Shown: piece after piece, positions 1,440 to 52,501 of the stretch
Numbering within the stretch: the first letter of the stretch is position 1
Layout: each line of letters starts with the position of its first letter
Origin: a virus
Taxonomy: Duplodnaviria > Caudoviricetes
DNA length: 57,257 nt
Direction: 5' to 3' (one strand)
Virus record (IMG/VR): IMGVR_UViG_3300038393_002601
Coordinates: 1-57,257 of that record
Translations under genes and position numbers: made by a program
Notes under the pieces: generated by a model
What the model was told of the DNA's origin: nothing
The model's database searches: none
The model's input: the letters and a program-made list of their open reading frames with translations, nothing else

Positions 1440-1565
1440 CATGCAATGCAAATAATCCATAAAATTTTTATATATTCACTCTGTTTTTATAAATCCATAT
1501 AATGGGAACAAATGTTGTGATAAAATAGGTGTAAATACCTAAATATACCGAAGTTGGTGTTTACT

Positions 1566-4295
1566 ATGTCGATCAGTTGGAATGAGATAAGAGCGAGAGC
1601 CATTGCTTTTTCAAAGGAATGGGAAAATGAAACTAGTGAAGATGCAGAAGCGAAGTCATTCTGGGATGGTTTTTTTCATATATTTGGGGTGCCGCGTCGT
1701 CGGGTCGCCTCATTTGAGAGTAGAGTAAGACATAATGGGAAAACAGGATACATCGATCTATTATGGAAAGGCGTTATTCTGATTGAACATAAATCGAAAG
1801 GCCGAGATTTGGACAAAGCCTTTCAACAAGCCATTGAGTATTTTCCAGGATTACGTGATGATGAACTCCCGCAATATATTCTAGTATCTGATTTTTCACG
1901 TTTTAGGCTGTATGACCTGGAAGAGAATATACAACATGAGTTTCACTTAAAAGATTTGGTCGATTGTGTTCATTTATTTGGCTTTATCGCTGGTTATCAA
2001 AAACACACCTACTACAAAGAGCAAGACCCCGTCAATATTCGAGCAGCGGAATGGATGGGGAAACTGCATGATCAATTAAAAGAAGTCAATTACACCGGAC
2101 ATGCTTTGGAATTGTACCTGGTTCGCCTTCTTTTTTGCTTATTTGCTGACAACACTAGTATCTTTGATAAAAATTCATTCCAAGATTATATCAGAACGAA
2201 GACCAAGGAAGATGGAAGTGATTTGGCCTTTCACCTTTCTGCGATATTCGAGATTTGCGATACGCGACCTGATAGACGTTTGAAAAATATTGATGAAAGT
2301 CTTGCCAACTTTCCGTATATCAACGGAAAGTTATTTGAAGAACGATTGCCAAACGCCGCTTTTGACAGTGGGATGCGGCAATTGCTTTTGGATTGTTGCG
2401 GACTTAACTGGGGACGCGTTTCTCCCGCGATCTTTGGTTCTTTGTTTCAAAGCGTCATGAACCCCGTGGAGCGAAGAAACCTGGGGGCTCATTATACGAC
2501 GGAAGAAAATATCCTGAAGCTCATTAAGAGTTTGTTTTTGGACGAACTGTGGGCGGAGTTTGAAGGGTTAAAAGGGAGTAATATCCGTGAGCGTCAATTT
2601 GTAGGGAATACGACAAGGTTGACGAGGTTCCACCAAAAAATCGCCTCGCTTCGCTTTCTCGATCCCGCATGTGGATGCGGAAATTTTTTAGTTATCGCGT
2701 ACAGGGAGCTGCGTTTATTGGAAATTGCGGTTATACGTGAGCTCATCGGGCGACAAATGGTTATGAACATCAGCGACCTTGTGATGGTGGATGTCGATCA
2801 ATTCTATGGATTTGAAGTGGAGGAATTCCCGGCTCAAATCGCCCAAGTTGCTCTGTGGCTGATGGATCATCAGATGAACATGATTCTAAGCCAGGAGTTT
2901 GGAGAATACTATGTTCGTTTGCCATTGCGTAAAAGTGCAAATATTATTCATGGAAATGCCCTCCAGATGGATTGGAGGGAGGTTGTCGACCCGAATCTGA
3001 TTACGTACATTCTTGGAAATCCTCCGTTTGTTGGAAAGCAATATCAGGATGATCGCCAAAAAGAAGAACTCGAAGCTGTATTTGCAGGTGTACGTGGTGC
3101 TGGGGTGTTGGATTACGTATCCGCTTGGTTTTTGAAAGCGGCTCAATACATCCAAGACACGAATATCAGCGTGGGTTTAGTTTCGACGAACTCGATTACG
3201 CAAGGGGAACAAGTCAGTGTGTTGTGGAAGCAGTTGTTTGATACGTACCATATTCACATTAATTTCGCCCATCGAACGTTTCAATGGACTAGTGAGGCCA
3301 GAGGAAGAGCAGCAGTTCATTGTGTGATTATTGGTTTTTCTTTAAAGGATGAAGATCCGAAAACCATTTTTGATTATGAGACCCCAACATCGGAACCGCT
3401 GTCTGTGAGGGTCAAGAACATCAACGCCTACCTGGTGCCAGGAGATAATATTTGGTTAAATAAACGAAGAACGCCCATTTCTGATTCTGCTCCTCCGATG
3501 GCGTTTGGAAGTATGCCGAATGATGGTGGGTTCTTGCTCCTGACGACTGAACAAAAGGAGCAGCTGTTAGCAAGAGATCCAAAGGCGGAGAAGTTTGTGT
3601 TGCCGCTGCTGGGGAGTGAAGAGCTGATTAATGGCATGGAGCGGTGGTGCATTTGGCTGCACAACGTTCCTCCAGAAGACTATCGAAACTTGCATGGTGT
3701 GATGGAGCGAATTAAGCAGGTAAGAGATAAACGACTAAAGAGCAGACGTGGACAAACCAATAATCTTGCAAAAGTACCGCAATTATTTGGTGAGATTCGG
3801 CAACCAAGTGGTCCTTACCTTGCCTTTCCTGAAGTCTCGTCGGAAACAAGATACTATATTCCTTTAACGTTCTTACCGCCTGAAGTGATTGCGACGAATA
3901 AGTTGTATACCATCCAAGGAGCAACCTTATATCATTTTGGGGTGTTAAGTTCTGCGATGCATATGTCTTGGACAAGAACCGTTTGTGGAAGACTAAAAAG
4001 TGATTATCAATATTCAACAGGGATTGTCTATAATAACTTTCCGTGGCCGAGCCCTGATGATAAGCTAATTGCGAGAATCGAACGTGCAGCTCAAGTGGTG
4101 TTAGAAGCACGATCTAAATTCCCAAGTTCGACGCTTGCTGATTTGTATCATCCGCTTACTATGCCCCCTGAGCTGGTTAGGGCACATGAACGCCTTGACC
4201 ATGTGGTGGATATTGCGTACGGTGGGAAACGATTTAAAACGGACGGAGAACGACTTGCACATCTTTTCGGAAGGTATTTGGAATTAACCAAGTAA
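1566..4295 (+). CDS. MmeI-like type IIL restriction-modification enzyme (fused REase-MTase-TRD)
   Basis: IDLLWKGVILIEHKS (PD-ExK), GAHYT, FLDPACGCGNF (motif I), GNPPF (motif IV), C-terminal VYNNFPWP / TLADLY / H-x-x-LD-x-x-V-D-x-AY; ~910 aa. Confidence 0.92.
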   Translation: MSISWNEIRARAIAFSKEWENETSEDAEAKSFWDGFFHIFGVPRRRVASFESRVRHNGKTGYIDLLWKGVILIEHKSKGRDLDKAFQQAIEYFPGLRDDELPQYILVSDFSRFRLYDLEENIQHEFHLKDLVDCVHLFGFIAGYQKHTYYKEQDPVNIRAAEWMGKLHDQLKEVNYTGHALELYLVRLLFCLFADNTSIFDKNSFQDYIRTKTKEDGSDLAFHLSAIFEICDTRPDRRLKNIDESLANFPYINGKLFEERLPNAAFDSGMRQLLLDCCGLNWGRVSPAIFGSLFQSVMNPVERRNLGAHYTTEENILKLIKSLFLDELWAEFEGLKGSNIRERQFVGNTTRLTRFHQKIASLRFLDPACGCGNFLVIAYRELRLLEIAVIRELIGRQMVMNISDLVMVDVDQFYGFEVEEFPAQIAQVALWLMDHQMNMILSQEFGEYYVRLPLRKSANIIHGNALQMDWREVVDPNLITYILGNPPFVGKQYQDDRQKEELEAVFAGVRGAGVLDYVSAWFLKAAQYIQDTNISVGLVSTNSITQGEQVSVLWKQLFDTYHIHINFAHRTFQWTSEARGRAAVHCVIIGFSLKDEDPKTIFDYETPTSEPLSVRVKNINAYLVPGDNIWLNKRRTPISDSAPPMAFGSMPNDGGFLLLTTEQKEQLLARDPKAEKFVLPLLGSEELINGMERWCIWLHNVPPEDYRNLHGVMERIKQVRDKRLKSRRGQTNNLAKVPQLFGEIRQPSGPYLAFPEVSSETRYYIPLTFLPPEVIATNKLYTIQGATLYHFGVLSSAMHMSWTRTVCGRLKSDYQYSTGIVYNNFPWPSPDDKLIARIERAAQVVLEARSKFPSSTLADLYHPLTMPPELVRAHERLDHVVDIAYGGKRFKTDGERLAHLFGRYLELTK

Positions 4296-4393: not shown

Positions 4394-5893
4394 TTATAAT
4401 TTCCATTCATCCTCAATGGGCGGTAAATCGATCGATACGGTTAATCGATCTCCGTTTTCCTTGTTCTTTTTTTCTTCTTCAATATGCACAGCAATGACTA
4501 CATACAGAAGCAGAGATCGGATTGTCTTCATTAAATCAAATGTATAATCCTGCAACTCATCGTCGGTGATGTAAAAAGCCAGCTGATCCCCTCGCATTCC
4601 CCGATCATCTCCCACCATAGGAAACATGGTTGTTTTAGAGTATTTGTGCTCAATCTGATCTCGAAGATCTTTGAGTATCCTACTTTTGGGTTTGATGACC
4701 CGGTTGTTGACTTCATAGAAATCTTTAGATATCCAATACATTCCACCTAAAGCTAAATTTTCACTGGTTTTAGATAGGATGGGGTTTTCGTATCTGTAAC
4801 CATTCCTCCCGCTTTTTTCTTCAAGCCATATACTTCTGAAGCTCACATCTTTTTCCTCAATGCCAATCTGGAAATATTGGTTCATAAAAAATGCGATTTT
4901 ATCTAGTAGTGAATACAGGGCTCTGTAGGCCATTTTCATTTTGAAATCACTCAAGGAGTGAATGGCGTAATCCAGTGTATTAAGGATCTTTACTTGTCGG
5001 TCGGAGAAATGCTCTTGTGTTTTGGGCTGTATGGCTTCATAAAATAAATACCTAGATGATACGTATTCTTGCTTGATTAGATTGTAGAATCCGTGTAGCC
5101 TGGAATCGTACTCGATGGGTCTGACGATGGATGGCAAATGAATGGGATCATGGGCCGTAGCACTGATTTTTAGCACGTCGTTTACTGGGTTTAAAAATAA
5201 GGTGTTTTCAAGACACCACAGTCGGTATGCTTCCTCTTCTGGTTCACCCAAATCATAGTCGTCGAATTGCAAAGGAGTATCGAGCCAGCTCTTGTCAAAG
5301 TGCGATTCTAAGAATAATTTGTCTTGATCATATAACTCATACGCTTGGGGATGAGGATAATGCAGCTGATTTTTAAGGGCCTGTGAAAACTGGTTGTAAG
5401 CGGAATGGTAGTATATCTGTTGGTATCCGGGATCCCATACTATATTTCCTAAGATGTGATAGGCTCGGCCCCGATTCCCTATGGCTATGGGATGTTTTGA
5501 GAATATTTCTAGAGCGTTATTATATAAGGCAATGGCTTCGAATATTTTTCCCACGGTTAGATAAGTGTTGCCTAAGTTCGTGTATAACTGCGGAATTTGG
5601 ATGATATCTACATCCTTTTGATGCTCATCGTATATATCGATCGCTTTTCTAAAATAAAAAATTTGTTGTTCCAATAGATATTCATTTTCTACACCTATAT
5701 CTGCCCCTAAGTGTAAGAAGTCTCCATGAACGGTTCCTAATGAATAATAAAGCTGCAACTCTTCTGCTGGTGAAAAGGATTCAATTTCTAATAGGAGCAA
5801 TGAATATTCAATCGTAGCCAGTATGGATTCTACATCCTTCTGGATGTAAAACTCATCAAAATATTTACTAATGACGGCTGCTTTGTTTGGCAT
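4394..5893 (-). CDS. TPR + LA2681-family HEPN domain protein, predicted defence RNase
   Basis: TPR-like YTNLGNTY; LFLNPVND, NLIKQEYVSSRY, YSLLDKIAFF and HEPN R-x4-H (RDQIEH) motifs. Confidence 0.85.
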   Translation of the reverse strand: MPNKAAVISKYFDEFYIQKDVESILATIEYSLLLLEIESFSPAEELQLYYSLGTVHGDFLHLGADIGVENEYLLEQQIFYFRKAIDIYDEHQKDVDIIQIPQLYTNLGNTYLTVGKIFEAIALYNNALEIFSKHPIAIGNRGRAYHILGNIVWDPGYQQIYYHSAYNQFSQALKNQLHYPHPQAYELYDQDKLFLESHFDKSWLDTPLQFDDYDLGEPEEEAYRLWCLENTLFLNPVNDVLKISATAHDPIHLPSIVRPIEYDSRLHGFYNLIKQEYVSSRYLFYEAIQPKTQEHFSDRQVKILNTLDYAIHSLSDFKMKMAYRALYSLLDKIAFFMNQYFQIGIEEKDVSFRSIWLEEKSGRNGYRYENPILSKTSENLALGGMYWISKDFYEVNNRVIKPKSRILKDLRDQIEHKYSKTTMFPMVGDDRGMRGDQLAFYITDDELQDYTFDLMKTIRSLLLYVVIAVHIEEEKKNKENGDRLTVSIDLPPIEDEWKL

Positions 5894-7355: not shown

Positions 7356-7846
7356 TTACCAGTATACAAAATTTGTTTTTTGTTTCGCTAGGGGTTTTAC
7401 ACTTCAACAATAAAATTATTTAAAACTATTCATGTTGCATAGTGGTTAATCATTGTAAGTAACAATATTAATGATACATACAACTGAACACTTATAATGT
7501 TTAGTATTACATAATATTGGTTAAAATATACCTAAAGTCCTTTTTGAATTACAAAAGAACGGTGATGCTTGAAATTGCATCTATTTGCAAGTCTTCTGAC
7601 ATTATATTGAAATTCCTGAAAAGCCCGTCATTATTGGGTTTTACCCTATTTAGCTTCACTTTTGATACTCTTTCAGGTGAAAATATATCGGTTGTAGTTG
7701 ATTATTTGAATTTATAGCAGGTTATTTTCGAATATTTATTCACGCCTAACATTTTTTGTATCTGTCTGATTATATCCAGAGAGGCTTCTCTCCGTTCCGT
7801 CGAAAAACCTCTCTGGTGATTTATGAATCCGGATTTAAAAAACCGT

Positions 7847-8642: not shown

Positions 8643-9410
8643 ATGGAATTATCACTACACGACTTTATTCAGCTTCAAAAAGAAATCGGTCCCGACGGCT
8701 GGCAACTGTATTCCATCTTACGATTGGTTTCCAATGGGGATACGGTCTTCTTTAAGCAGGATGAGCTCGCAGATCTTCTTGGTGTATCCAGCACTCGAAC
8801 CGTGTATAAACGCCTCAAGGAGTTGCAAAACGTACAAATCAATACCAAACCGCTGTTGAAACAAATCGAGAAACGGCCTGATGGGAATGTCTATCGCTTG
8901 CTTCCGCTAGAGGTCAGCAAAATCGTTCAGGTCCGTAATTCTGATCTGACCGTATATTCTTTAAGTGATAGCTTAGACATGAACAAAAAGGATACAGAAG
9001 TAACGGATGTGCCGACTACTGCTGAAATTACGACAGAGACGCCTGCACAGACCGCAAAACCGACACCTCAGCAGTTAATCGGCTACTGGTCGGATCGGTA
9101 CGAAGAAACGTACGATACGAAATATGTTGTCTCGTGGAAGAAGGATGCACCGCTGATGAAACGACTGCTCATTAATTACGGCGATGAAATGTTACGGGCG
9201 ATCATTGACGTGGTTATGCGAATGTACGATAAGAAATGGAAATCGGCGGCATATACTCGGCCGACAATCGGCCAACTGTCGAGTTGGATTGCCCAGCAGG
9301 CGGAACCATTTGCCAAAGCTAATTTACAAGCGACACAACCGATGCAAGTGGCGACGGAACAATCAAGCGAAGATTTGTTGCAAGCTCTCGAAGAAAAAGG
9401 GTGGTTCTGA
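8643..9410 (+). CDS. Phage replication initiator / replisome organiser (N-terminal wHTH)
   Basis: HTH QDELADLLGVSSTRTVYKRLKEL; C-terminal helical domain (YTRPTIGQL); upstream of DnaC/DnaB. Confidence 0.75.
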   Translation: MELSLHDFIQLQKEIGPDGWQLYSILRLVSNGDTVFFKQDELADLLGVSSTRTVYKRLKELQNVQINTKPLLKQIEKRPDGNVYRLLPLEVSKIVQVRNSDLTVYSLSDSLDMNKKDTEVTDVPTTAEITTETPAQTAKPTPQQLIGYWSDRYEETYDTKYVVSWKKDAPLMKRLLINYGDEMLRAIIDVVMRMYDKKWKSAAYTRPTIGQLSSWIAQQAEPFAKANLQATQPMQVATEQSSEDLLQALEEKGWF

Positions 9411-9676
9411 TGATCGTGTCGTATGAGGAAATCCTTCGGCAAACGTATAATCGGCCTGCTAAGGAAATTGAGATAGTAGATTACAGGTTCACCATTTCAG
9501 CAGCTGGAAATCCTCTCGCCATCATTTACGTGAAGTTGGTTACTGGAGATGTTGATTGTATTCGGATGACCAAGAAAAACGGTGAGTGGCACATGGTTGA
9601 TTATGCGTATGATGCTTTGATTGATGAGAAGATGTTGAATCATCCTAGTTTACGGTTATTATTTCTTGTTCATTAA
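9410..9676 (+). CDS. Small RL-tail family protein
   Basis: Ends MLNHPSLRLLFLVH; ATG overlaps the initiator stop. Confidence 0.75.
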   Translation: MIVSYEEILRQTYNRPAKEIEIVDYRFTISAAGNPLAIIYVKLVTGDVDCIRMTKKNGEWHMVDYAYDALIDEKMLNHPSLRLLFLVH

Positions 9677-9719: not shown

Positions 9720-10064
9720 GTGAACGAATCTCGAATGGATTTAGAAGCTCGAATTAGTTTTGAGTTCGAGATTGAAGCGGCTAGAAGGAAAGATGACAAC
9801 TATTTGATTTATCTTAAGCGTACAAACGATTTTGGTTTTAATGCAGGATTATTGTCTGTTCTTACAAATGATGATCTGGAAATCATCCAAGGGCCTAGAT
9901 TAGTTGTTCCGATTCATGAAATAGAGTTGTTCCAGATGCAAAAACTGATTCGAAATGAACGTCTTTTGATTATCACGGGATGCTATCCCGAAGGATATCC
10001 GGGAGAAATCATCACTAAAGATGGGTACGTTCAAATTTACGATGAGAATAAAGGATGGATTTAG
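9720..10064 (+). CDS. Small RL-tail family protein (subfamily B)
   Basis: LIRNERLLIITGCYP, similar to 14427-14666. Confidence 0.7.
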   Translation: MNESRMDLEARISFEFEIEAARRKDDNYLIYLKRTNDFGFNAGLLSVLTNDDLEIIQGPRLVVPIHEIELFQMQKLIRNERLLIITGCYPEGYPGEIITKDGYVQIYDENKGWI

Positions 10065-10075
10065 GAGGCAAGGCA

Positions 10076-10399
10076 ATGGGATTTCATTCATACGAAGAAG
10101 TTAAGGATCAACTTGTTTTCTATCTAAATATCTGGCCGCACAGCAGAATACCACAATATTTAATGAACGAATTCTTCCAAGGGAATTTTGACGTCGTTGA
10201 TTACCAGGTTGTTCAAGCAACTAAGAGTCTTAAAGGGATAGCTGTACTGCTTAATATCTTAGGAAAACCTGCTGAAATTGATTTTGTTAAATCAGATAAT
10301 GCATGGAAAATTGCTGGAGATCATAGTCAACAATTATGTTTAAAAGAAAAAGAACTGCTTGAACATCCTAAGTTGCGGTTGTTATTTCTTACGCATTAA
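10076..10399 (+). CDS. Small RL-tail family protein
   Basis: RBS AGGAGG; ends LLEHPKLRLLFLTH. Confidence 0.75.
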   Translation: MGFHSYEEVKDQLVFYLNIWPHSRIPQYLMNEFFQGNFDVVDYQVVQATKSLKGIAVLLNILGKPAEIDFVKSDNAWKIAGDHSQQLCLKEKELLEHPKLRLLFLTH

Positions 10400-13861: not shown

Positions 13862-14209
13862 ATGAAATTTGATTCTGGAATGGAAATGACCATGGCTTTA
13901 CGTTATGAACCGCATCGACTTAATCTTAATGATGGTTACGATATATTACGGTTAAAAAAAGAGAAGGTCATAAAACAATTATTTAATGGAGAGTTTGAAA
14001 TTGTTGGTTACGACCTAACTAATGTTGAACTCGATGATATAGATAAATGGCTGAAGGTAGGCATCAGGGTTGGTACTGAGGTGGTGGGTCTTTTTTATTG
14101 TAAAGGTCCTGCTGGTTGGTATCCAGATACTTATATTGAAGATGTACGATTGTTTCAATATGAGTTGATGAATCATCCTAAATTGCGTTTATTGTTTGTG
14201 GTGGAGTGA
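13862..14209 (+). CDS. RL-tail family protein
   Basis: Ends LMNHPKLRLLFVVE; LFNGEFEIVGY resembles FFQGNFDVVDY of 10076. Confidence 0.75.
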   Translation: MKFDSGMEMTMALRYEPHRLNLNDGYDILRLKKEKVIKQLFNGEFEIVGYDLTNVELDDIDKWLKVGIRVGTEVVGLFYCKGPAGWYPDTYIEDVRLFQYELMNHPKLRLLFVVE

Positions 14210-15353: not shown

Positions 15354-15620
15354 ATGAATTTCGGCCAAGCGTTAGAAACATTAAAAGAAGGTAAGAAGAT
15401 TAAACGTTCACATTGGAGCGGTTATATAAAATTTGGCACGTTGGAACTGAAGCAAACTCACAGTAGTATTCACGGAAATACCTTTCAATTAGAAATGAAA
15501 ATCAATTTATATGATTCTCGTTATGTAAATATCGACCACGATGAAGTAAAACCAGTAGCAAACACTTTTAACTTAGTTCTTGATGATTTGATAGCAGAAG
15601 ATTGGATGGTGGTTAAATGA
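15354..15620 (+). CDS. DUF2829 / Tad2-like anti-defence sponge protein
   Basis: MNFGQAL..LK.GKKI.R..W.G and D..AEDW.V signatures. Confidence 0.8.
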   Translation: MNFGQALETLKEGKKIKRSHWSGYIKFGTLELKQTHSSIHGNTFQLEMKINLYDSRYVNIDHDEVKPVANTFNLVLDDLIAEDWMVVK

Positions 15621-15922
15621 TTACTATGCAAAAATCAATTCCATCTTTTAACATTTCAAATGTGGAGATGACTCCTTTATTCAAATTACATTCCAGTGAT
15701 TATAAAACACTCATATGTTTTATAACTATTTATTTCGTTATAAAAGAAGAGCCTGATATTCGAAACTTTAGAACATTTTATTTCAAAAATGGTAAGTGGA
15801 ATATGTGTAGAAATGATTTTTATGATAAAGATTTAGAAATTCTTTTGTTTCATCCTAGTGTTCGATTAGATGTTCTGTTTCTTCCAGCGGAAGAACCAAA
15901 GAAGGTGGTGTTCAATGATTGA
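15617..15922 (+). CDS. RL-tail family protein
   Basis: KNGKW like KNGEW of 9410; LLFHPSVRLDVLFL. Confidence 0.7.
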   Translation: MITMQKSIPSFNISNVEMTPLFKLHSSDYKTLICFITIYFVIKEEPDIRNFRTFYFKNGKWNMCRNDFYDKDLEILLFHPSVRLDVLFLPAEEPKKVVFND

Positions 15923-16322
15923 TATCCGACATTTCATCGTTCCTGGGAGACCTTGCCCAAAAGAGCGTCCACGTTTCTTTCGCGGCAAAGCAATAACCCC
16001 GATGAAAACACAACATTATGAAGCAATAATTCGTAATGAATATCAAAACGCCCATGGAGATAAAACACCGTATGAGTGTGATCTCGAAGTGGGCGTTTTT
16101 GTTTTTTTAAATGATAGACGTCATGGGGACTGCGATAATTACGCCAAAGTCGCCCAGGATGCGTTAAATAAAATCGCTTGGAAAGACGACAAACTGATTA
16201 AACAACTCACCGTATACCTCGTGATAGATAAGAAAGAATCCACACGCCTCGAAATGGTCATTCAGCCACTCAATGATTCCTTCCGCGAAACCATCCAAAA
16301 CCAATTAGAATCCCATAATTAA
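15915..16322 (+). CDS. rusA: RusA-like Holliday junction resolvase
   Basis: G.P.PK.RPR, D.DN..K...DALN...W.DD..I motifs. Confidence 0.9.
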   Translation: MIDIRHFIVPGRPCPKERPRFFRGKAITPMKTQHYEAIIRNEYQNAHGDKTPYECDLEVGVFVFLNDRRHGDCDNYAKVAQDALNKIAWKDDKLIKQLTVYLVIDKKESTRLEMVIQPLNDSFRETIQNQLESHN

Positions 16323-16429
16323 GGTTCATTGTTCAGTAATACTTTTCAAGAAAAAAGTTTATAAACCAAAGAAGGACTTTAACGAAAAACTTTGCAACGA
16401 ATAATACCAACTTGCAAAGGAGAATTTCA

Positions 16430-16708
16430 ATGAAGTTTGATCTTGAATTTATCGATACATTTTTTCAACGCAATCACTATATGGTTTACCTTGCTGTCAA
16501 TCAAAACAAGGATAATCTTAACTTTTTTGTACAAGTAGATCCTGAAAGTTTTAAAGTCGTAGATATTTCTTGGTTTATGAGATTGATGGAGTTTTTGAAC
16601 ATGCCTAGAACGGATTGGTACATGTTTAAAGATGCCGTTGATCAATTCATTCATAAAAATCGTTTGGCCATTCTACTTACATCCCAGGAAGAGAAGTCAC
16701 ATGTATAA
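16430..16708 (+). CDS. RL-tail family protein (subfamily B)
   Basis: RBS AAAGGAG; FIHKNRLAILL. Confidence 0.7.
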   Translation: MKFDLEFIDTFFQRNHYMVYLAVNQNKDNLNFFVQVDPESFKVVDISWFMRLMEFLNMPRTDWYMFKDAVDQFIHKNRLAILLTSQEEKSHV

Positions 16709-17378
16709 GATAAACGATGAACAATTAAAAGAATGGATTAAACAAGCGAAAGACGGTGACCGCGAAGCAGCTGCAAGGATCGTGGAAACATGCAAACCTT
16801 TAATTCTCAAGCTGGTTTATAAAATGCCACTCCTTGTTGCTGGCTATAGTGCGGAAGATTTATTTCAAGAAGGGATGCTTCACCTTTACAATTCCATCTT
16901 TACTTTTGATCCAACAAAAGACGTACAGCCGACTGCTTTCTTTTATCACTGTGCAAGAAGAAAGCTGTATACGTTAATTCTAAAGTCGAGAAACCATAAA
17001 AATTCGGTTTTAAATACTAGTTTTTCGTTAGATCAAACGTTGAATGAAGCTGAAGAAACCACATATTACACTGTTATTTCTGCAAATGAAGCGTATGGTA
17101 CGCAAAGTCTATGCTACCATGACCCTGCTAAGTGTACGGATGTTAAAGAATCCTTACACCTGGCCAACGATTTTTTACATAACCAATGCTCGAAATTGGA
17201 ACGAAAGGTATATGAGCTTTATCTTGAAGGATATTCTTACGAGAAGATTGTAGAGACACTGCAACTTAAGAATATAAAAATGGTGGACAATACCATTCAA
17301 CGCGTCCGAAAAAAGTTAGGTACCTTTGATTTATATAATTATTCTCCAACTCCTTCACGGAAGAAGAGAATTCTATGA
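16701..17378 (+). CDS. SigH-like RNA polymerase sigma factor
   Basis: EDLFQEG, LN.S.SLD, S.LE..V..LYL.G.SY..I, DN.IQRVRKKL match SigH/Spo0H regions 2-4. Confidence 0.88.
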   Translation: MYKINDEQLKEWIKQAKDGDREAAARIVETCKPLILKLVYKMPLLVAGYSAEDLFQEGMLHLYNSIFTFDPTKDVQPTAFFYHCARRKLYTLILKSRNHKNSVLNTSFSLDQTLNEAEETTYYTVISANEAYGTQSLCYHDPAKCTDVKESLHLANDFLHNQCSKLERKVYELYLEGYSYEKIVETLQLKNIKMVDNTIQRVRKKLGTFDLYNYSPTPSRKKRIL

Positions 17379-19363
17379 AAAAGATAGATGATGATTTATT
17401 AATACAATTAATTCAACAAGCGAAAGATGGCGATCGGGAAGCAATAGCACGTTTCTTGGAAGAATGTAAGTCTATTGTTCGAAAGGCGATCAATAAGACA
17501 CGAATTTATGTCACCGGGTTTTCTTCTGATGATTTATTCCAAGAAGGCATGCTAACGATTTATGAAGACATGTTTGATTTTGATCCAACAAAAGGGATAC
17601 CAAGTTTATTCTTTTACATGTGTGTAAAGAAAAGACTACTTGCTTTAATTACTAAGTCTGCAAACCATAAGAATTCGGTTTTAAATAGCAGTTGCTCATT
17701 GGACAGCCCCATGAAAGAGGATGGAGATACGTTTTACGCTATGACCTCCGCAGATGATGCGTATGGCACGCAAAGTTTAATCTATCAAGATCCTGCGAAG
17801 TGCTTGGACGTAAAGGAATCGTTACACCTTGCTAGAGATTTTTTTCAGAACAAATGCACGGATAAGGAGCGGAAAATCTATGAGCTTTCTGTGGAGGGTT
17901 TTTCATATCAGCAGATTGCCGAAAAGCTCCAGCTTCGCAATAAGAAAACCGTAGATAACACGATTCAACGGGTACGTAAGAAACTTGGCAACTGCGATTT
18001 TGAAAATTATCAACCTGAATCGATTGAAAATCCTGTTAAGGAGAAAAAGAAATCCATGAAAAAGTTTGATAATGATCTGTTATCCGAATGGATTCCAAAA
18101 GCTAAAAATCGCGACCGTTTTGCCATGAAAGCTATTTTAGATATGGCTACTCCTTTTGTAGAAGGTTTCATACGAAAGAAAGGATATTATGCCAAAGGTT
18201 CTGAGTTTGAAGATTTGGTTCAAGAAGGTTTAATTGCAGTAACAAAAGCAGTCGAACAATATGATTCAGATAAAGGAGTCGTACCTTCTTCTTTTATGGC
18301 CATGGTGATCGAACGGGCTTTGGCTTCTGCCTTAATAGCGGCAAACCGTAAAAAACACCAAGTTCTTAGTGATTCTGCCTCGCTTGATAAACCAGCAGCC
18401 GAAGATTCGAATTACAATCACTCATTAGTAGATACAATCACATATGAAATTGAAACCTATGATCCGTATTCCTTAATGTATGATGATCCAGCAAGCAGCC
18501 TTGAAATGCAAGAGATCCTGGAGCAGGCTCAAGACTATTTGAACTATCATTGTTCAAAAACCGAAAAACAAATCTTTGATCTTCATCTTCATGCATGTAG
18601 TTACACTGAAATTGGAGAACAACTGAATGTAACGAATAAAGCAATTGATAACGCGATTCAGCGAGTAAAAAGGAAATTAAGGGATTTTAAACCTTATGAT
18701 GTACCTGATACACCGCCTACAAAGATTCAAAAATCGGAGGAGAAATCGATGCGACTAATGAAAGAAGATACATTTCGTTTAATGGAACTGCTTCTGCTGC
18801 CTAAAGAGCAAAGGTCACAAAGGTTGGATGACCTGCGAGAACAATTTGGTGCAGATCTGCTGAAACGAAATCGCTCAAATTTAAAAACACTGGGTTATGT
18901 TGAAGGTTCTGGCGATTATTGCGAATGTGACTTAACCGATAAAGGTCGAGAACGTTATGAAGCAAATAAACATCGATTCTCTTCGATCCTATCGTCCGTT
19001 AGCAGTAATACGATTGAAGAATCATTTGAAAATGTTAAGCACGCTTTAAACAAAACTGGCGAAAAGTTAGGAGAAGTGGCTACGGAAATCAGTGGAAAGA
19101 TGTCTCAAGCCGTATCTCAAATCGCGGATTATGTATCTACGCCTTCTCAAGTAGAAAAAGTAGAAATCGTTGAAAAAACCGAACCCGATAAAGTAGTTGA
19201 AATCCCAATGAATAACTCAACGGACCAGCTCATGCTGTTGCTAAGACAAAATTTCGAGGAAAAAGATCGTGAAATTGCAGCTTTGAAAGAACAAGTTGAA
19301 TCGTTGCAATCTACATTACGTGAAGTAAAAAGTGTATTTGAAAAAATAAATATAGCGATTTAA
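17375..19363 (+). CDS. Fusion of two SigH-like sigma domains plus C-terminal wHTH/coiled-coil domain
   Basis: Two complete SigH-like units (residues ~1-215 and ~228-440), then LK.LGYV....LTDKGR wing motif and coiled coil; internal RBS+ATG at 18056 and 18749. Confidence 0.85.
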   Translation: MKKIDDDLLIQLIQQAKDGDREAIARFLEECKSIVRKAINKTRIYVTGFSSDDLFQEGMLTIYEDMFDFDPTKGIPSLFFYMCVKKRLLALITKSANHKNSVLNSSCSLDSPMKEDGDTFYAMTSADDAYGTQSLIYQDPAKCLDVKESLHLARDFFQNKCTDKERKIYELSVEGFSYQQIAEKLQLRNKKTVDNTIQRVRKKLGNCDFENYQPESIENPVKEKKKSMKKFDNDLLSEWIPKAKNRDRFAMKAILDMATPFVEGFIRKKGYYAKGSEFEDLVQEGLIAVTKAVEQYDSDKGVVPSSFMAMVIERALASALIAANRKKHQVLSDSASLDKPAAEDSNYNHSLVDTITYEIETYDPYSLMYDDPASSLEMQEILEQAQDYLNYHCSKTEKQIFDLHLHACSYTEIGEQLNVTNKAIDNAIQRVKRKLRDFKPYDVPDTPPTKIQKSEEKSMRLMKEDTFRLMELLLLPKEQRSQRLDDLREQFGADLLKRNRSNLKTLGYVEGSGDYCECDLTDKGRERYEANKHRFSSILSSVSSNTIEESFENVKHALNKTGEKLGEVATEISGKMSQAVSQIADYVSTPSQVEKVEIVEKTEPDKVVEIPMNNSTDQLMLLLRQNFEEKDREIAALKEQVESLQSTLREVKSVFEKINIAI

Positions 19364-19376
19364 ATAGAAGCTCAAG

Positions 19377-19414
19377 CCACGCTGAAATCGGTCATTTAGC
19401 GTGGATATTTTTTT
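19377..19414 (+). terminator. Intrinsic terminator
   Basis: CCACGCTGAA/TTTAGCGTGG stem + T tract. Confidence 0.7.
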
Positions 19415-19422
19415 ATTAAAAA

Positions 19423-19447
19423 AGGATTCTTTAAATCTCTTGACAAT
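19423..19447 (+). promoter_or_regulatory. SigH-like promoter candidate
   Basis: AGGA-N17-CAAT immediately after the terminator. Confidence 0.5.
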
Positions 19448-19475
19448 ACAAAGATATCAAGTTCCTAGGGGTACC

Positions 19476-19790
19476 ATGAAAATTATTGAAATGGAAACAC
19501 ATAGTGTTCGAATGGTTGATCATCGGAGAGATATTGTCTATGACTTTCCTATGTTATCGCTAACCATTGAATTCATGGAAGATCATCATGAATTTGAAAT
19601 CGTTAGAGAAGAAAATATCCCTGAGTTAGATAGAAAATATTACTTTTACTATGAAGGCTACGCCATAAGGCATCGTAAAAGTTATGACTTAAATGGAATT
19701 TACAAGTCTATCAACTTCGACTTTACGCCACTTATTCCTAAAGTGGTGAATGAAGTACCAGAAACAAGACTTCAGCTTTTATTTTTGTAA
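19476..19790 (+). CDS. RL-tail family protein (PETRL subfamily)
   Basis: Ends NEVPETRLQLLFL; paralog of 20083. Confidence 0.75.
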   Translation: MKIIEMETHSVRMVDHRRDIVYDFPMLSLTIEFMEDHHEFEIVREENIPELDRKYYFYYEGYAIRHRKSYDLNGIYKSINFDFTPLIPKVVNEVPETRLQLLFL

Positions 19791-19813
19791 CTAACTTTAA
19801 GGAGTGATTAGCC

Positions 19814-20086
19814 TTGTTGTATTGGAAAGATGGTAGGGATTTATTCGAATGGGAAGCGTCACGCGAATTCGAAGAAGTGGCAACAACACTGATTGATCAT
19901 GGTTACAAAGATGCTGCGAAAGAAGTGCTAAATCTAAAATACACGATCGAACAAGCCATTGTGCGTGCAGATGTGTTGTTTGAGCGTTTGAAAGGTGTTA
20001 TTCAAGCTGCTGAAAAAGTAGAGGATGGGAATTGGAATAAAGATGCTCTTGTTAAAGCTGTAAATGAATATAGGGGCGAGAAATGA
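19814..20086 (+). CDS. Hypothetical phage protein
   Basis: RBS AAGGAG, helical 90 aa. Confidence 0.7.
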   Translation: MLYWKDGRDLFEWEASREFEEVATTLIDHGYKDAAKEVLNLKYTIEQAIVRADVLFERLKGVIQAAEKVEDGNWNKDALVKAVNEYRGEK

Positions 20087-20406
20087 TATTAAAAATCATA
20101 TCAGTTGTTAAAGGAACGGCAAGGATAGATTCCTTCAACATAAACACCAATAGTTATGATCACTTTGAATATCCTTATTTACATCTTAAATTCGAATTAA
20201 ATGGAGAAGAACATGAACTAAGGATTTCAAGGAAAGAAGTTATTCCCAATTTCGATAAAAATGAGCATTTATTCTTCGAAAAGTTTGCATTTTCATTTCC
20301 AGCGAGTATGAATAAAGATCCTCAAGAATTGTATTTTTATATTCCATGGTTGGATCAAATCATTAATGAATTTCCAGAAACGAGACTGGCACTATTATTC
20401 TTATAA
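20083..20406 (+). CDS. RL-tail family protein (PETRL subfamily)
   Basis: Ends NEFPETRLALLFL. Confidence 0.75.
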   Translation: MILKIISVVKGTARIDSFNINTNSYDHFEYPYLHLKFELNGEEHELRISRKEVIPNFDKNEHLFFEKFAFSFPASMNKDPQELYFYIPWLDQIINEFPETRLALLFL

Positions 20407-21879: not shown

Positions 21880-22230
21880 ATGGCTAGGGTGAAAGTGGAC
21901 ATTCATAAACTAGCAAGACGCTTGGAAGAGCGGTATGATTACACCGTTGATGGTGTTAAAAACTTTTTAAAAGATTTGGGTAAACTACAAACCCAACGTA
22001 TCACAAACATTGAAATTACTTTGTTATGCATTGATTTTGAACAGGCAGTAGAAATGGCTGAATTGTCTGATCGTGAACGAGAAACGTTGTATCAGCGATA
22101 TATTCTCAGATACACGCAAAAACATGTTGCGAAATCTCTAGGGATCACTCGCCGATCGGTACAAATCTATGAAAAACGAGGGATTCAAAAATTAGTAGAT
22201 GCCCTGACGGGGAGTGATGCTAATGTTTAG
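21880..22230 (+). CDS. Sigma70 region-4 HTH protein, probable late-gene activator
   Basis: LSDRERETL...YTQKHVAKSLGITRRSV; near the end of the early operon. Confidence 0.75.
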   Translation: MARVKVDIHKLARRLEERYDYTVDGVKNFLKDLGKLQTQRITNIEITLLCIDFEQAVEMAELSDRERETLYQRYILRYTQKHVAKSLGITRRSVQIYEKRGIQKLVDALTGSDANV

Positions 22231-22773: not shown

Positions 22774-22818
22774 AAAAAAAGCCCCGTTGGACATTCTATC
22801 CAACGGGGTAACTTTTTT
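22774..22818. terminator. Terminator, probably ending the late transcript
   Basis: CCCCGTTGGA/TCCAACGGGG stem with A7 and T tracts. Confidence 0.75.
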
Positions 22819-51053: not shown

Positions 51054-51374
51054 ATGATACAAGATATCCAAATTGTTCATGAAGATGAAATGGATTGGAA
51101 AGGTGAGGTGTTCGGTTTTATCATTCAGTACCGGTATCGAGAAAATATGTATGTTTCTTACTACTATCGAGCCACCCATCCGATTGATTTGAAAGCTGCT
51201 GAAAAAGAATGCTACACTGATCGAAGCTTCATCCGATTTACATTCAAAACGTTTGATGGAGGTTATGGAGCTCCATCACGGCTACATAATAAAACAAAAG
51301 AAATGATTCTCAAGGAATTAGATGCATTCGTTGAAAGTCATTCGAAATATCGATTGTTGTTTTTGTTTAATTAG
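51054..51374 (+). CDS. RL-tail family protein (HSKYRL subfamily)
   Basis: Ends FVESHSKYRLLFLFN. Confidence 0.75.
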   Translation: MIQDIQIVHEDEMDWKGEVFGFIIQYRYRENMYVSYYYRATHPIDLKAAEKECYTDRSFIRFTFKTFDGGYGAPSRLHNKTKEMILKELDAFVESHSKYRLLFLFN

Positions 51375-51616: not shown

Positions 51617-51935
51617 TTTGAGGTAATAAGCCGAATAATTGGTTTCATGTTGGACATACTAAAAAGGCACACAAGAAACCAACCTGTTTGCGGCGATTTC
51701 TTGAGGATTTACGCTAGTTTCACAAGTAGAAAATATTCCGTGTTCATCAACACGGAATATTTTCTTTTTTCACTGGAAATATTACTAATGAGTCGTAGAA
51801 TTTCGCTTAAAGTTGTGAAAAAGATTCCGTATTCAAAAATACGGAATCTTTTTTCACTAATACTGTTCAGTGTTATGTATGATTATTACTGAATATGGAA
51901 ATATTAGTAATGCAGACTTATTTAGGAGGACCTCT

Positions 51936-52217
51936 ATGATCTCAGACATGCAACTTTATTGTGAAGAAGAACTGGACGAGTGTTTTTTCTTTCAAGTCGA
52001 ATTCACCTACTCCAAAAAGCGATACGTGACTCATTTAGTTCATTACTTTAGTAGGTCCCACCGACCAAATGAAACGGCTCTAATGAGTACGTACAACCAC
52101 ATGGGAACTGAAGTGACGTTTCCGATTGAATTGGAAAAACAAATGATTACTGAGCTGATGGAGTATGTTAAGCAACACTCGAAATATCGTTTGTTGTTTT
52201 TAATGGACGTGGTGTAG
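51936..52217 (+). CDS. RL-tail family protein (HSKYRL subfamily)
   Basis: RBS AGGAGG; ends YVKQHSKYRLLFLMDVV. Confidence 0.78.
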   Translation: MISDMQLYCEEELDECFFFQVEFTYSKKRYVTHLVHYFSRSHRPNETALMSTYNHMGTEVTFPIELEKQMITELMEYVKQHSKYRLLFLMDVV

Positions 52218-52219
52218 CC

Positions 52220-52501
52220 ATGATTTCGAACATCAACATCATCAGTCATGAAGAACATGAACCCTGCTTCTTAATCGAGATGGAGTTTAGGTATCGAACG
52301 CGAATGTATACTACGTTTTTGGTGCGTTACTTCAGCTACTCGCACCGACCAGACGAAACGTTCATCACGGGCGTGTTTAACGCTTCTGGCATAGAAGTTC
52401 GATTCTCAGACGCTAACCAGAAACGTATTGCCGATGAGCTGCTGAATTACATCAAGCAACATCCGAATTTTCGTTTGTTGTTTTTATTGGATGCGATCTA
52501 A
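52220..52501 (+). CDS. RL-tail family protein, tandem paralog of 51936
   Basis: YFS.SHRP.ET shared; ends YIKQHPNFRLLFLLDAI. Confidence 0.78.
   Translation: MISNINIISHEEHEPCFLIEMEFRYRTRMYTTFLVRYFSYSHRPDETFITGVFNASGIEVRFSDANQKRIADELLNYIKQHPNFRLLFLLDAI

Follow-up and report, generated by a model that had tools for sequence, protein, structure and literature searches.

A sigma factor cassette with two SigH-like units fused in one reading frame in a new 57-kb soil phage

The stretch of DNA analysed here (the window) is the whole of a 57,257-bp virus record of IMG/VR (IMGVR_UViG_3300038393_002601), which is a new 57-kb soil phage, likely of Bacillota and probably from within Bacillaceae. On its + strand lies a compact sigma factor cassette (Table 1), in which a small conserved open reading frame (ORF) is followed by a stand-alone sigma gene of SigH-like type (ORF1, encoding P0001, i.e., sigma unit 1 or U1) and by a much longer ORF (ORF2, encoding P0002), which holds two further sigma units (U2 and U3), a winged-helix domain and a probable coiled coil. 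ORF1 and ORF2 overlap by the four letters ATGA at 17375-17378. Apart from the small ORF, this architecture had been read from the letters alone in an earlier note (hereafter the original prediction), and it is borne out by the Pfam matches, the alignments and the predicted fold described below.

Table 1. Coordinates of the cassette, of other features in the window and of the related genes in a Mesobacillus prophage
Feature	Position	Strand	Details
Virus record, IMG/VR	57,257 bp, whole		window = full record; CheckV completeness 98%
Small conserved ORF	16430..16708	+	92 aa from ATG 16430; overlaps U1 start by 8 nt
ORF1 / P0001 (sigma unit 1, U1)	16701..17378	+	225 aa; stand-alone, SigH-like sigma2+sigma4
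ORF2 / P0002	17375..19363	+	662 aa, no stops; U2 + U3 + winged helix + probable coiled coil
Sigma unit 2 (U2)	17375..18055	+	residues 1-227 of ORF2; close paralogue of U1; SigH models 78-102 bits
13-nt extra segment in U2 tail relative to U1 tail	18016..18028	+	from DNA alignment; placement good to a few nt
Internal AAGGAG, spacer and ATG (Met228)	18038..18058	+	AAGGAG 18038-18043, 12-nt spacer, ATG 18056-18058; putative former U3 start
Sigma unit 3 (U3)	18056..18748	+	residues 228-458 of ORF2; SigH models 95-106 bits
Internal GGAGGAG, spacer and ATG (Met459)	18736..18751	+	GGAGGAG 18736-18742, 6-nt spacer, ATG 18749-18751; putative tail start
Winged-helix domain	18749..19030	+	residues 459 to about 552; pLDDT 81-96 in U3+tail model; VIA-align
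C-terminal long helix, probable coiled coil	19220..19363	+	residues about 616-662, plus stop; pLDDT about 90
Terminator-like hairpin with T run	19377..19404	+	immediately 3' of ORF2, closes the cassette
Fourth sigma-related gene	21880..22230	+	116 aa, region 4 only; Pfam Sigma70_r4 38.8 bits; phrog_3512 'sigma factor' E 6e-14
P0004 (WP_090741423.1)	contig L090, 8001-8957		318 aa; SigH-like + extra region 4 (residues 249-296)
P0012 (WP_090741421.1)	contig L090, 8954-10933		659 aa; double sigma

The three sigma modules look intact, both in their sequences and in the predicted model. In P0001, Sigma70_r2 scores 49.4 bits (cut-off 24) and Sigma70_r4_2 scores 23.5 bits, just below its cut-off of 25.7, while P0002 contains two stretches of each family above cut-off (r2: 61.7 bits; r4_2: 57.4 bits); neither region 1 nor region 3 of Pfam is matched in the units, as in cellular SigH. 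All three units pass the 42.9-bit cut-off of the sigma-70 superfamily model TIGR02937 (U1: 60.4; U2: 54.0; U3: 68.9 bits). Among the PHROGs, which have no curated cut-off, the phage RNA polymerase sigma factor family (PHROG 351) matches P0002 at E 1.6e-36 (residues 270-659 on profile positions 522-916) and each unit taken singly at E 5e-16 to 2e-19. In the AlphaFold2 model, sigma2 and sigma4 of U3 reach predicted local distance difference test (pLDDT) values of mostly 90-98, and the best solved relative of U3 is 3mzy_A, an 'RNA polymerase sigma-H factor' (E 8e-17). Conservation was also scored over 44 SigH-like representatives, in which 38 columns reach at least 80%; of these, U1 and U3 keep 28 each and U2 keeps 25.

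Pairwise BLASTP of the full-length units aligns all of them end to end, with 58.8% identity over 216 columns between U1 and U2 (E 3e-95), 34.5% between U1 and U3 (E 1e-42) and 35.5% between U2 and U3 (E 2e-42). U1 and U2 had been described as close paralogues that arose by duplication, and the motifs quoted for this are indeed present in the alignment. Moreover, the two units are sisters in our tree of 40 rows (100/98 support), and their proportions of nonsynonymous and synonymous differences (pN 0.24; pS 0.67) correspond to a dN/dS of about 0.17, with dS near saturation, so that both have been under purifying selection. A divergence in specificity, which had been proposed along with the duplication, is not shown; the region 4.2 helices are almost identical across the three units. 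The R-x-K-H motif after region 2.4, where U1 and U2 differ from U3 and cellular SigH, is suggestive only of such a divergence.

The best NCBIfam models for every unit are SigH models, but their cut-offs are not reached. Across the SigH models overall, the units score 78-106 bits, against cut-offs of 208-414. The SigH equivalogs TIGR02859, NF006145 and NF006148 (cut-offs 208-294.8) yield 79.7-83.4 bits for U1, 75.5-78.0 for U2 and 95.4-100 for U3, while the highest scores from any one model (92.9-105.8 bits for a cut-off of 212) come from NF006147, whose name is just 'RNA polymerase factor sigma-70'. A phylogeny with cellular SigH had been called for in the original prediction. In a careful IQ-TREE analysis of 40 hand-picked rows, with a bootstrap that was not fully settled, U1, U2 and U3 belong to a clade of nine rows from which every cellular SigH row is separate (96/97), and a quick tree of 80 rows, from which hits longer than 260 aa were left out and for which every third cellular locus was taken, recovers the same clade. 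The remaining six rows are P0007 and the N-terminal units of P0004, P0012, P0005, P0047 and P0008 (see below). Inside the clade, U3 and P0007 join the U1-U2 pair at 92/87. The traceable members of the clade are all on phage DNA.

The window units and the cellular SigH (Spo0H) of Bacillota have in common a two-domain sigma (regions 2 and 4), the best NCBIfam family, the match to 3mzy_A and the motifs DL.QEG and K..DN..QR..K. Unlike cellular SigH, the window units are carried by a phage, exist in three copies of which two are fused, are extended by a tail with a winged helix and a coiled coil, and belong to a separate clade. Judged by these scores and trees, the units are SigH-like but not true SigH, and the SigH and sporulation framing of the original prediction is not supported as stated. 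As for U3, which was thought to lie closer to canonical SigH, its medians over 80 cellular SigH ORFs are somewhat higher (33% identity and 96.5 bits, vs. 30% and 79.7 bits for U1 and 28% and 76.8 bits for U2), a comparison that favours U3, as these ORFs were selected by a U3-based query.

How U2 came to be fused to U3 can be read from the junctions. The U1/U2 and U2/U3 junction DNAs are homologous, and both end in ATGAAAAAG. Counted by hand, an AATTAT anchor and ATGAAAAAG are separated by 32 nt in U1 as against 45 nt in U2, and the 13-nt difference is of mixed sequence rather than a homopolymer slip. As 13 nt do not make up whole codons, the TGA (18057-18059) of the second ATGA (18056-18059) falls out of frame, which leaves U2 and U3 in one polypeptide. 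With the 13 nt left out, the U2 tail would end in ..ILLRRKRNP plus a stop, while the U1 tail ends in ..SRKKRIL plus a stop.

Both inner boundaries of ORF2 have kept the signals of a gene start, i.e., a Shine-Dalgarno site and an ATG. Across the 68 ORFs of at least 80 aa, AGGAG or GGAGG stands upstream of 14 of the 343 internal ATGs (about half of them near N-termini), and the two ATGs of ORF2 with such upstream sites are exactly those at its two domain boundaries, which fits a fusion of former cistrons. As both signals are retained, internal starts giving U3 with the tail, or the tail by itself, are conceivable, and the start at Met228 is possibly still used. A -1 slip at G-AAA-AAG before Met228, which would yield a stand-alone U2, was also considered, and no evidence for it was found.

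The part of ORF2 downstream of U3 (the tail, residues 459-662) is predicted to fold as a winged helix plus a probable coiled coil. In the AlphaFold2 model of U3 with the tail (77-row alignment; mean pLDDT 82.6), sigma2 and sigma4 are followed by a three-helix domain with a beta hairpin (model residues 235-314) and by a single final helix (389-434). Modelled alone, the tail has a pLDDT of 67.7, and VIA-align returns winged-helix DNA binders (F93, MarR, HxlR, PadR) in nearly all of 50 rows, with Z scores of 8.6-7.1 over model residues 1-90 that are only middling by the tool's own note. Foldseek yields nothing at E <= 0.001 for the tail, its weak top rows being nearly all of winged-helix fold. 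With such Z scores and Foldseek rows, the assignment is one of fold class, and extends neither to a family nor to DNA binding. In Pfam, no family matches the tail above cut-off, and the Atlas structure rows reach template modelling (TM) scores of 0.30-0.38 only.

To place this arrangement among known proteins, ORF2 was searched with HMMER against 1.84 billion representative proteins, which gave 4,226 hits at E <= 0.001; the best 150 were inspected, the ten longest or multi-stretch hits were fetched, and Pfam was run on six. P0005 (456 aa), P0047 (435 aa) and P0008 (416 aa), each of them a metagenomic singleton among the roughly 15 billion proteins of a collection, differ from ORF2 in having a single sigma unit each, followed by the tail found in ORF2, and two of them are called 'sporulation-specific sigma factor' by JGI. 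U3 with the tail (435 aa) aligns end to end with all three at 26-28% identity; the tail start is marked in the four sequences by an invariant M-K-E...R, and the C-terminal helices align too. By this comparison, U3 with the tail is the usual single-protein form of the clade (n = 3 relatives of 416-456 aa). A winged-helix profile of the tail gives 110-129 bits to the four members it was trained on, a circular result.

Other searches added little. A word-index protein search (two hits out of 7,999 scored) returned only its own query and one 400-aa protein at 26% coverage, a search with U3 and the tail returned the query alone, and a profile search (alignment A1) gave seven hits, adding only P0008 and weak primary-sigma matches. 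No locus related to P0002 was found in viral or genome contigs, nor was the DNA of P0005, P0047 and P0008 found in viral or metagenome contigs. In INPHARED, 10 of 50,697 records match, none over at least 80% of the query, and the matches are single places of about 500-560 nt, i.e., the size of one unit.

That a double-sigma polypeptide is unusual, as originally proposed, agrees with the HMMER search, since one other double sigma was recognised among the best 150 of the 4,226 hits; a natural double sigma is very rare. This second protein, P0012, is publicly named a sigma-H or sigma-70 family factor and is encoded on an IMG/VR contig (L090) that is a prophage of Mesobacillus persicus B48, in the genome of a cultured isolate. 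Pfam finds in it two copies each of regions 2 and 4, besides a region 3. The gene order on L090 is a 93-aa ORF, an 8-nt overlap, P0004, an ATGA overlap and P0012, and the 93-aa ORF is 30% identical to the small ORF of the window (E 4e-11), which overlaps its sigma gene by 8 nt as well. The three-gene cassette is conserved in two distant phages, with a small ORF, a sigma gene, an ATGA and a double sigma of roughly 660 aa whose end is a winged helix, and the SigH-like units of the Mesobacillus cassette fall in the same clade as those of the window. Neither this conservation, nor the 13-nt indel behind the fusion, nor the standing of U3 with the tail as the usual single protein formed part of the original prediction. 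For the winged helix, the last 70 residues of P0012 match the profile mentioned above at E 0.0028 (the sole outside hit in a local set whose size was not counted), while BLASTP of the window tail against P0012 gives nothing (E 0.52), so the link rests on the profile match.

The two cassettes also differ. Their proteins are only 29-37% identical; P0012 lacks the coiled coil and has a region 3, while P0004 has an extra region 4. Pfam gives a further region 3 stretch in P0012, placed by eye in the 125-residue linker at about residues 250-300, and together with the extra region 4 of P0004 it suggests repeated domain shuffling in the family. The P0004 unit and the N-terminal unit of P0012 are sisters (94/97), as are U1 and U2, and the tandem duplication has therefore taken place separately in each phage line. 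Outside the cassette, the rest of the 18.9-kb L090 locus shows nothing in common with the window at E <= 1e-4 save one 19-residue match. Among the 150 matches listed in a survey of 269 genomes of the family of M. persicus (which has 1,452 weaker matches beyond these), none outside M. persicus reaches the tail or lies in a frame longer than 324 aa. The M. persicus genome holds two more SigH-like ORFs, of 235 and 237 aa (G001:C15:29640-30221 and G001:C34:45851-46399), one of which is presumably the host sigH.

In the window, the + strand holds, between about 8.6 and 22.5 kb, the early and replication genes (DnaC-like, DnaB-like, SSB-like, RusA), then the cassette and then small ORFs, while the - strand, read from 46.3 to 23.2 kb, encodes the large terminase through to the endolysin. 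The converging early (+) and late (-) arms are parted at 22781-22809 by a hairpin of 11-12 pairs that has T runs on either strand and is a strong terminator in both directions. From the gene arms and the terminator positions, the cassette is therefore placed at the end of the early arm. The small ORF of the cassette has no Pfam or PHROG match, its Atlas rows are all <0.9 and its best E in a PDB profile search is 0.51; a complex prediction for the small ORF and U1 scored 0.01 (mark: 0.32), which is evidence neither for nor against binding. Further downstream, the window encodes a 116-aa protein made of region 4 only, and by eye a small protein at L090 12472-12885 resembles it.

Several observations concern the genome at large. 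The dominant word between genes is CTGAAYA (about TAAYACTGAAYA in its longer form); non-coding DNA, which makes up 14% of the genome, holds 18 of the 29 copies. These are often arranged as palindromic pairs or as direct repeats at a distance of 13 nt, and they lie 33-96 nt upstream of eight genes; examples are at 7484, 9679, 10402, 13373, 16336(-), 20421/20427, 39411, 39443, 44361, 44374, 53550(-) and 54409. The word may be an operator or promoter element of some regulator. No tie to the cassette could be made: L090 shows no enrichment of the word, and its copies point both ways with respect to the genes. The left end of the window carries apparent defence cargo, i.e., a DUF4238 gene (439-1413), a complete MmeI-type restriction-modification enzyme with five MmeI domains (1554-4295) and, on the - strand, a TPR protein with an LA2681-like HEPN domain (4394-5893). 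Finally, a family of small ORFs shares the C-terminal motif ..HP..RL.LLFL just before the stop (9401-9676, 10055-10399, 13862-14209, 15617-15922, 19401-19790, 20083-20406, 51054-51374, 51870-52217 and 52220-52501) and is also seen as the DNA repeat families D2, D3, D7 and D10.

Our favoured explanation, which we hold to be reasonably probable on the sequence evidence, is that the cassette redirects the host RNA polymerase to phage genes. U1, U2 and U3 would bind the host RNA polymerase core and make it start at middle or late promoters of the phage itself, a role that we infer by analogy with the multi-sigma phages SPO1 and SP10. In the ancestor, a single sigma gene would have overlapped, by an ATGA, with a gene of about 435 aa of the form usual in the clade, encoding a sigma unit, a winged helix and a coiled coil. 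The upstream sigma gene and its junction would then have been duplicated in tandem, giving U1 and U2, and a later 13-nt length change in the second junction would have brought U2 in frame with U3. Given the start signals retained at the two inner boundaries, the full fusion is probably produced along with U3 plus the tail (435 aa), and perhaps also the tail by itself (204 aa). In this reading, the tail would probably add DNA binding and self-association.

Some of our results weigh against this explanation. U2 retains the fewest conserved columns (25 of 38). The 116-aa region-4 protein belongs with PHROGs that comprise sigma factors, transcriptional regulators and activators; it is possibly a late activator, and the cassette may therefore not be the late switch. 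No promoters for the cassette sigmas were found in the window: AGGAWWW-N10-13-GAAT, a SigH consensus that says nothing on the true specificity of the units, has one match for 2.45 expected, and a sigma-70-type promoter scan finds fewer sites than in shuffles (15 vs. 26.8). The second unit of P0012 is of SigB/F/G type (103 bits on TIGR02980, below cut-off) and not SigH-like, which makes the two fusions analogous rather than one inherited state; moreover, P0012 has no internal Shine-Dalgarno site plus ATG, so that internal starts are no general feature. The nearest large terminases to that of the window phage are only 32-39% identical and come from mixed hosts, Bacillus and Paenibacillus phages among them. 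No RNA run is among the public runs listed as carrying the stretch.

Alternatively, the 662-aa fusion may act as one chain, a two-headed sigma in which both modules are active, either loading in turn on one polymerase or holding two, while the tail tethers or multimerises the complex on phage DNA; two classes of promoter would thereby be coupled. The Mesobacillus protein speaks for this, as a second winged-helix double sigma (659 aa) that was built independently, stands in an isolate genome and lacks internal start signals. In ORF2 itself, both halves look intact, and the U2-U3 linker of about 25 residues looks flexible. Yet these two are the only cases among the best 150 hits of the HMMER search, and the Shine-Dalgarno sites and ATGs kept at the window boundaries are what one would expect if separate products still matter. 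We consider such a two-headed sigma possible, though unlikely.

The sigmas could also act on the host, as SigH mimics that activate or jam the regulon of the transition state and of sporulation initiation. SigH models are the best matches of the units, the recognition helix of their region 4.2 departs little from the cellular consensus, the sister cassette lies in a Bacillaceae prophage, and phage sporulation-like sigmas are reported to lower sporulation (PMC9429907). However, the units score far too low for the SigH equivalogs and stand apart from cellular SigH in the trees, and the text examined of PMC9429907 contains no occurrence of 'sigH'. In addition, the cassette stands where phage regulators usually are, not among cargo genes. 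A host-directed role is rather improbable in our eyes.

Stops or frameshifts splitting ORF2, which would turn the cassette into three separate sigma genes, are not seen in a second assembly: in Logan, a contig of run X1 that is 35,455 nt long and has a word depth of 64.5 spans 16000-20000 with 0 other letters and 0 gaps. Run X1 is the sole public run with the whole stretch and possibly the source sample, so that it provides a second assembly and assembler rather than an independent sample, and the comparison is one of contigs rather than of raw reads, in which rare variants may be hidden. Runs X2 and X3 match short pieces only, none over a junction; three identical 151-nt pieces, likewise off the junctions, come from a second soil run. 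A 151-nt contig of X3, a rhizosphere run, has eight differences from the window inside U2 (17506-17656), which therefore indicates a related phage in another sample. Even though the fusion depends on a frame-shifting difference in length beside an A-rich stretch, and even though the comparison has the limits just mentioned, the identical contig from another assembler, the mixed sequence of the 13 nt and the equivalent fusion in an isolate genome make an assembly or sequencing artefact, with a true stop at the ATGA at 18056-18059, extremely improbable.

Phage sigmas, adjacent sigma genes and sigma cascades are already known. Sigma factors are taken as single modules, one per polymerase. Among cellular sigmas, ECF41 and ECF42, of the extracytoplasmic function (ECF) type, have a regulatory C-terminal extension after region 4; they likewise have an extra domain at this place, but it is not a winged helix plus a coiled coil. 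The sigma proteins of SPO1 are gp28 and gp33/34. Multi-sigma phages include SPO1 and SP10, the latter with three sigmas, and phage Bcp1 has a tandem sigma pair (PMC9429907). What these phages share with the window is the presence of several phage-encoded sigmas per genome, some of them adjacent, used for timed phage transcription or for altering sporulation; they differ in that their sigmas are separate proteins of other subfamilies. Our full-text literature searches turned up neither a covalent sigma-sigma fusion nor such a winged-helix tail.

The occurrence, in two distant phages, of two complete sigma modules with a tail predicted to bind DNA and to self-associate raises the question of how the holoenzyme handles a tethered second sigma, and whether phages use sigma fusions to couple promoter classes. 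If the two-headed sigma were true for the 662-aa and 659-aa proteins, they would be a timing or coupling device that bridges two polymerases or hands one over between promoter classes, which to our knowledge is not known for any sigma factor, and the conserved upstream small ORF would then be a partner or an inhibitor. The locus also illustrates that, with ATGA stop/start overlaps, neighbouring genes are one small indel away from fusion. The rare SigH-like clade, whose traceable members are so far all on phage DNA, could be a source of orthogonal parts in the engineering of Bacillus, and the Mesobacillus persicus prophage offers a cultivable system for experiments.

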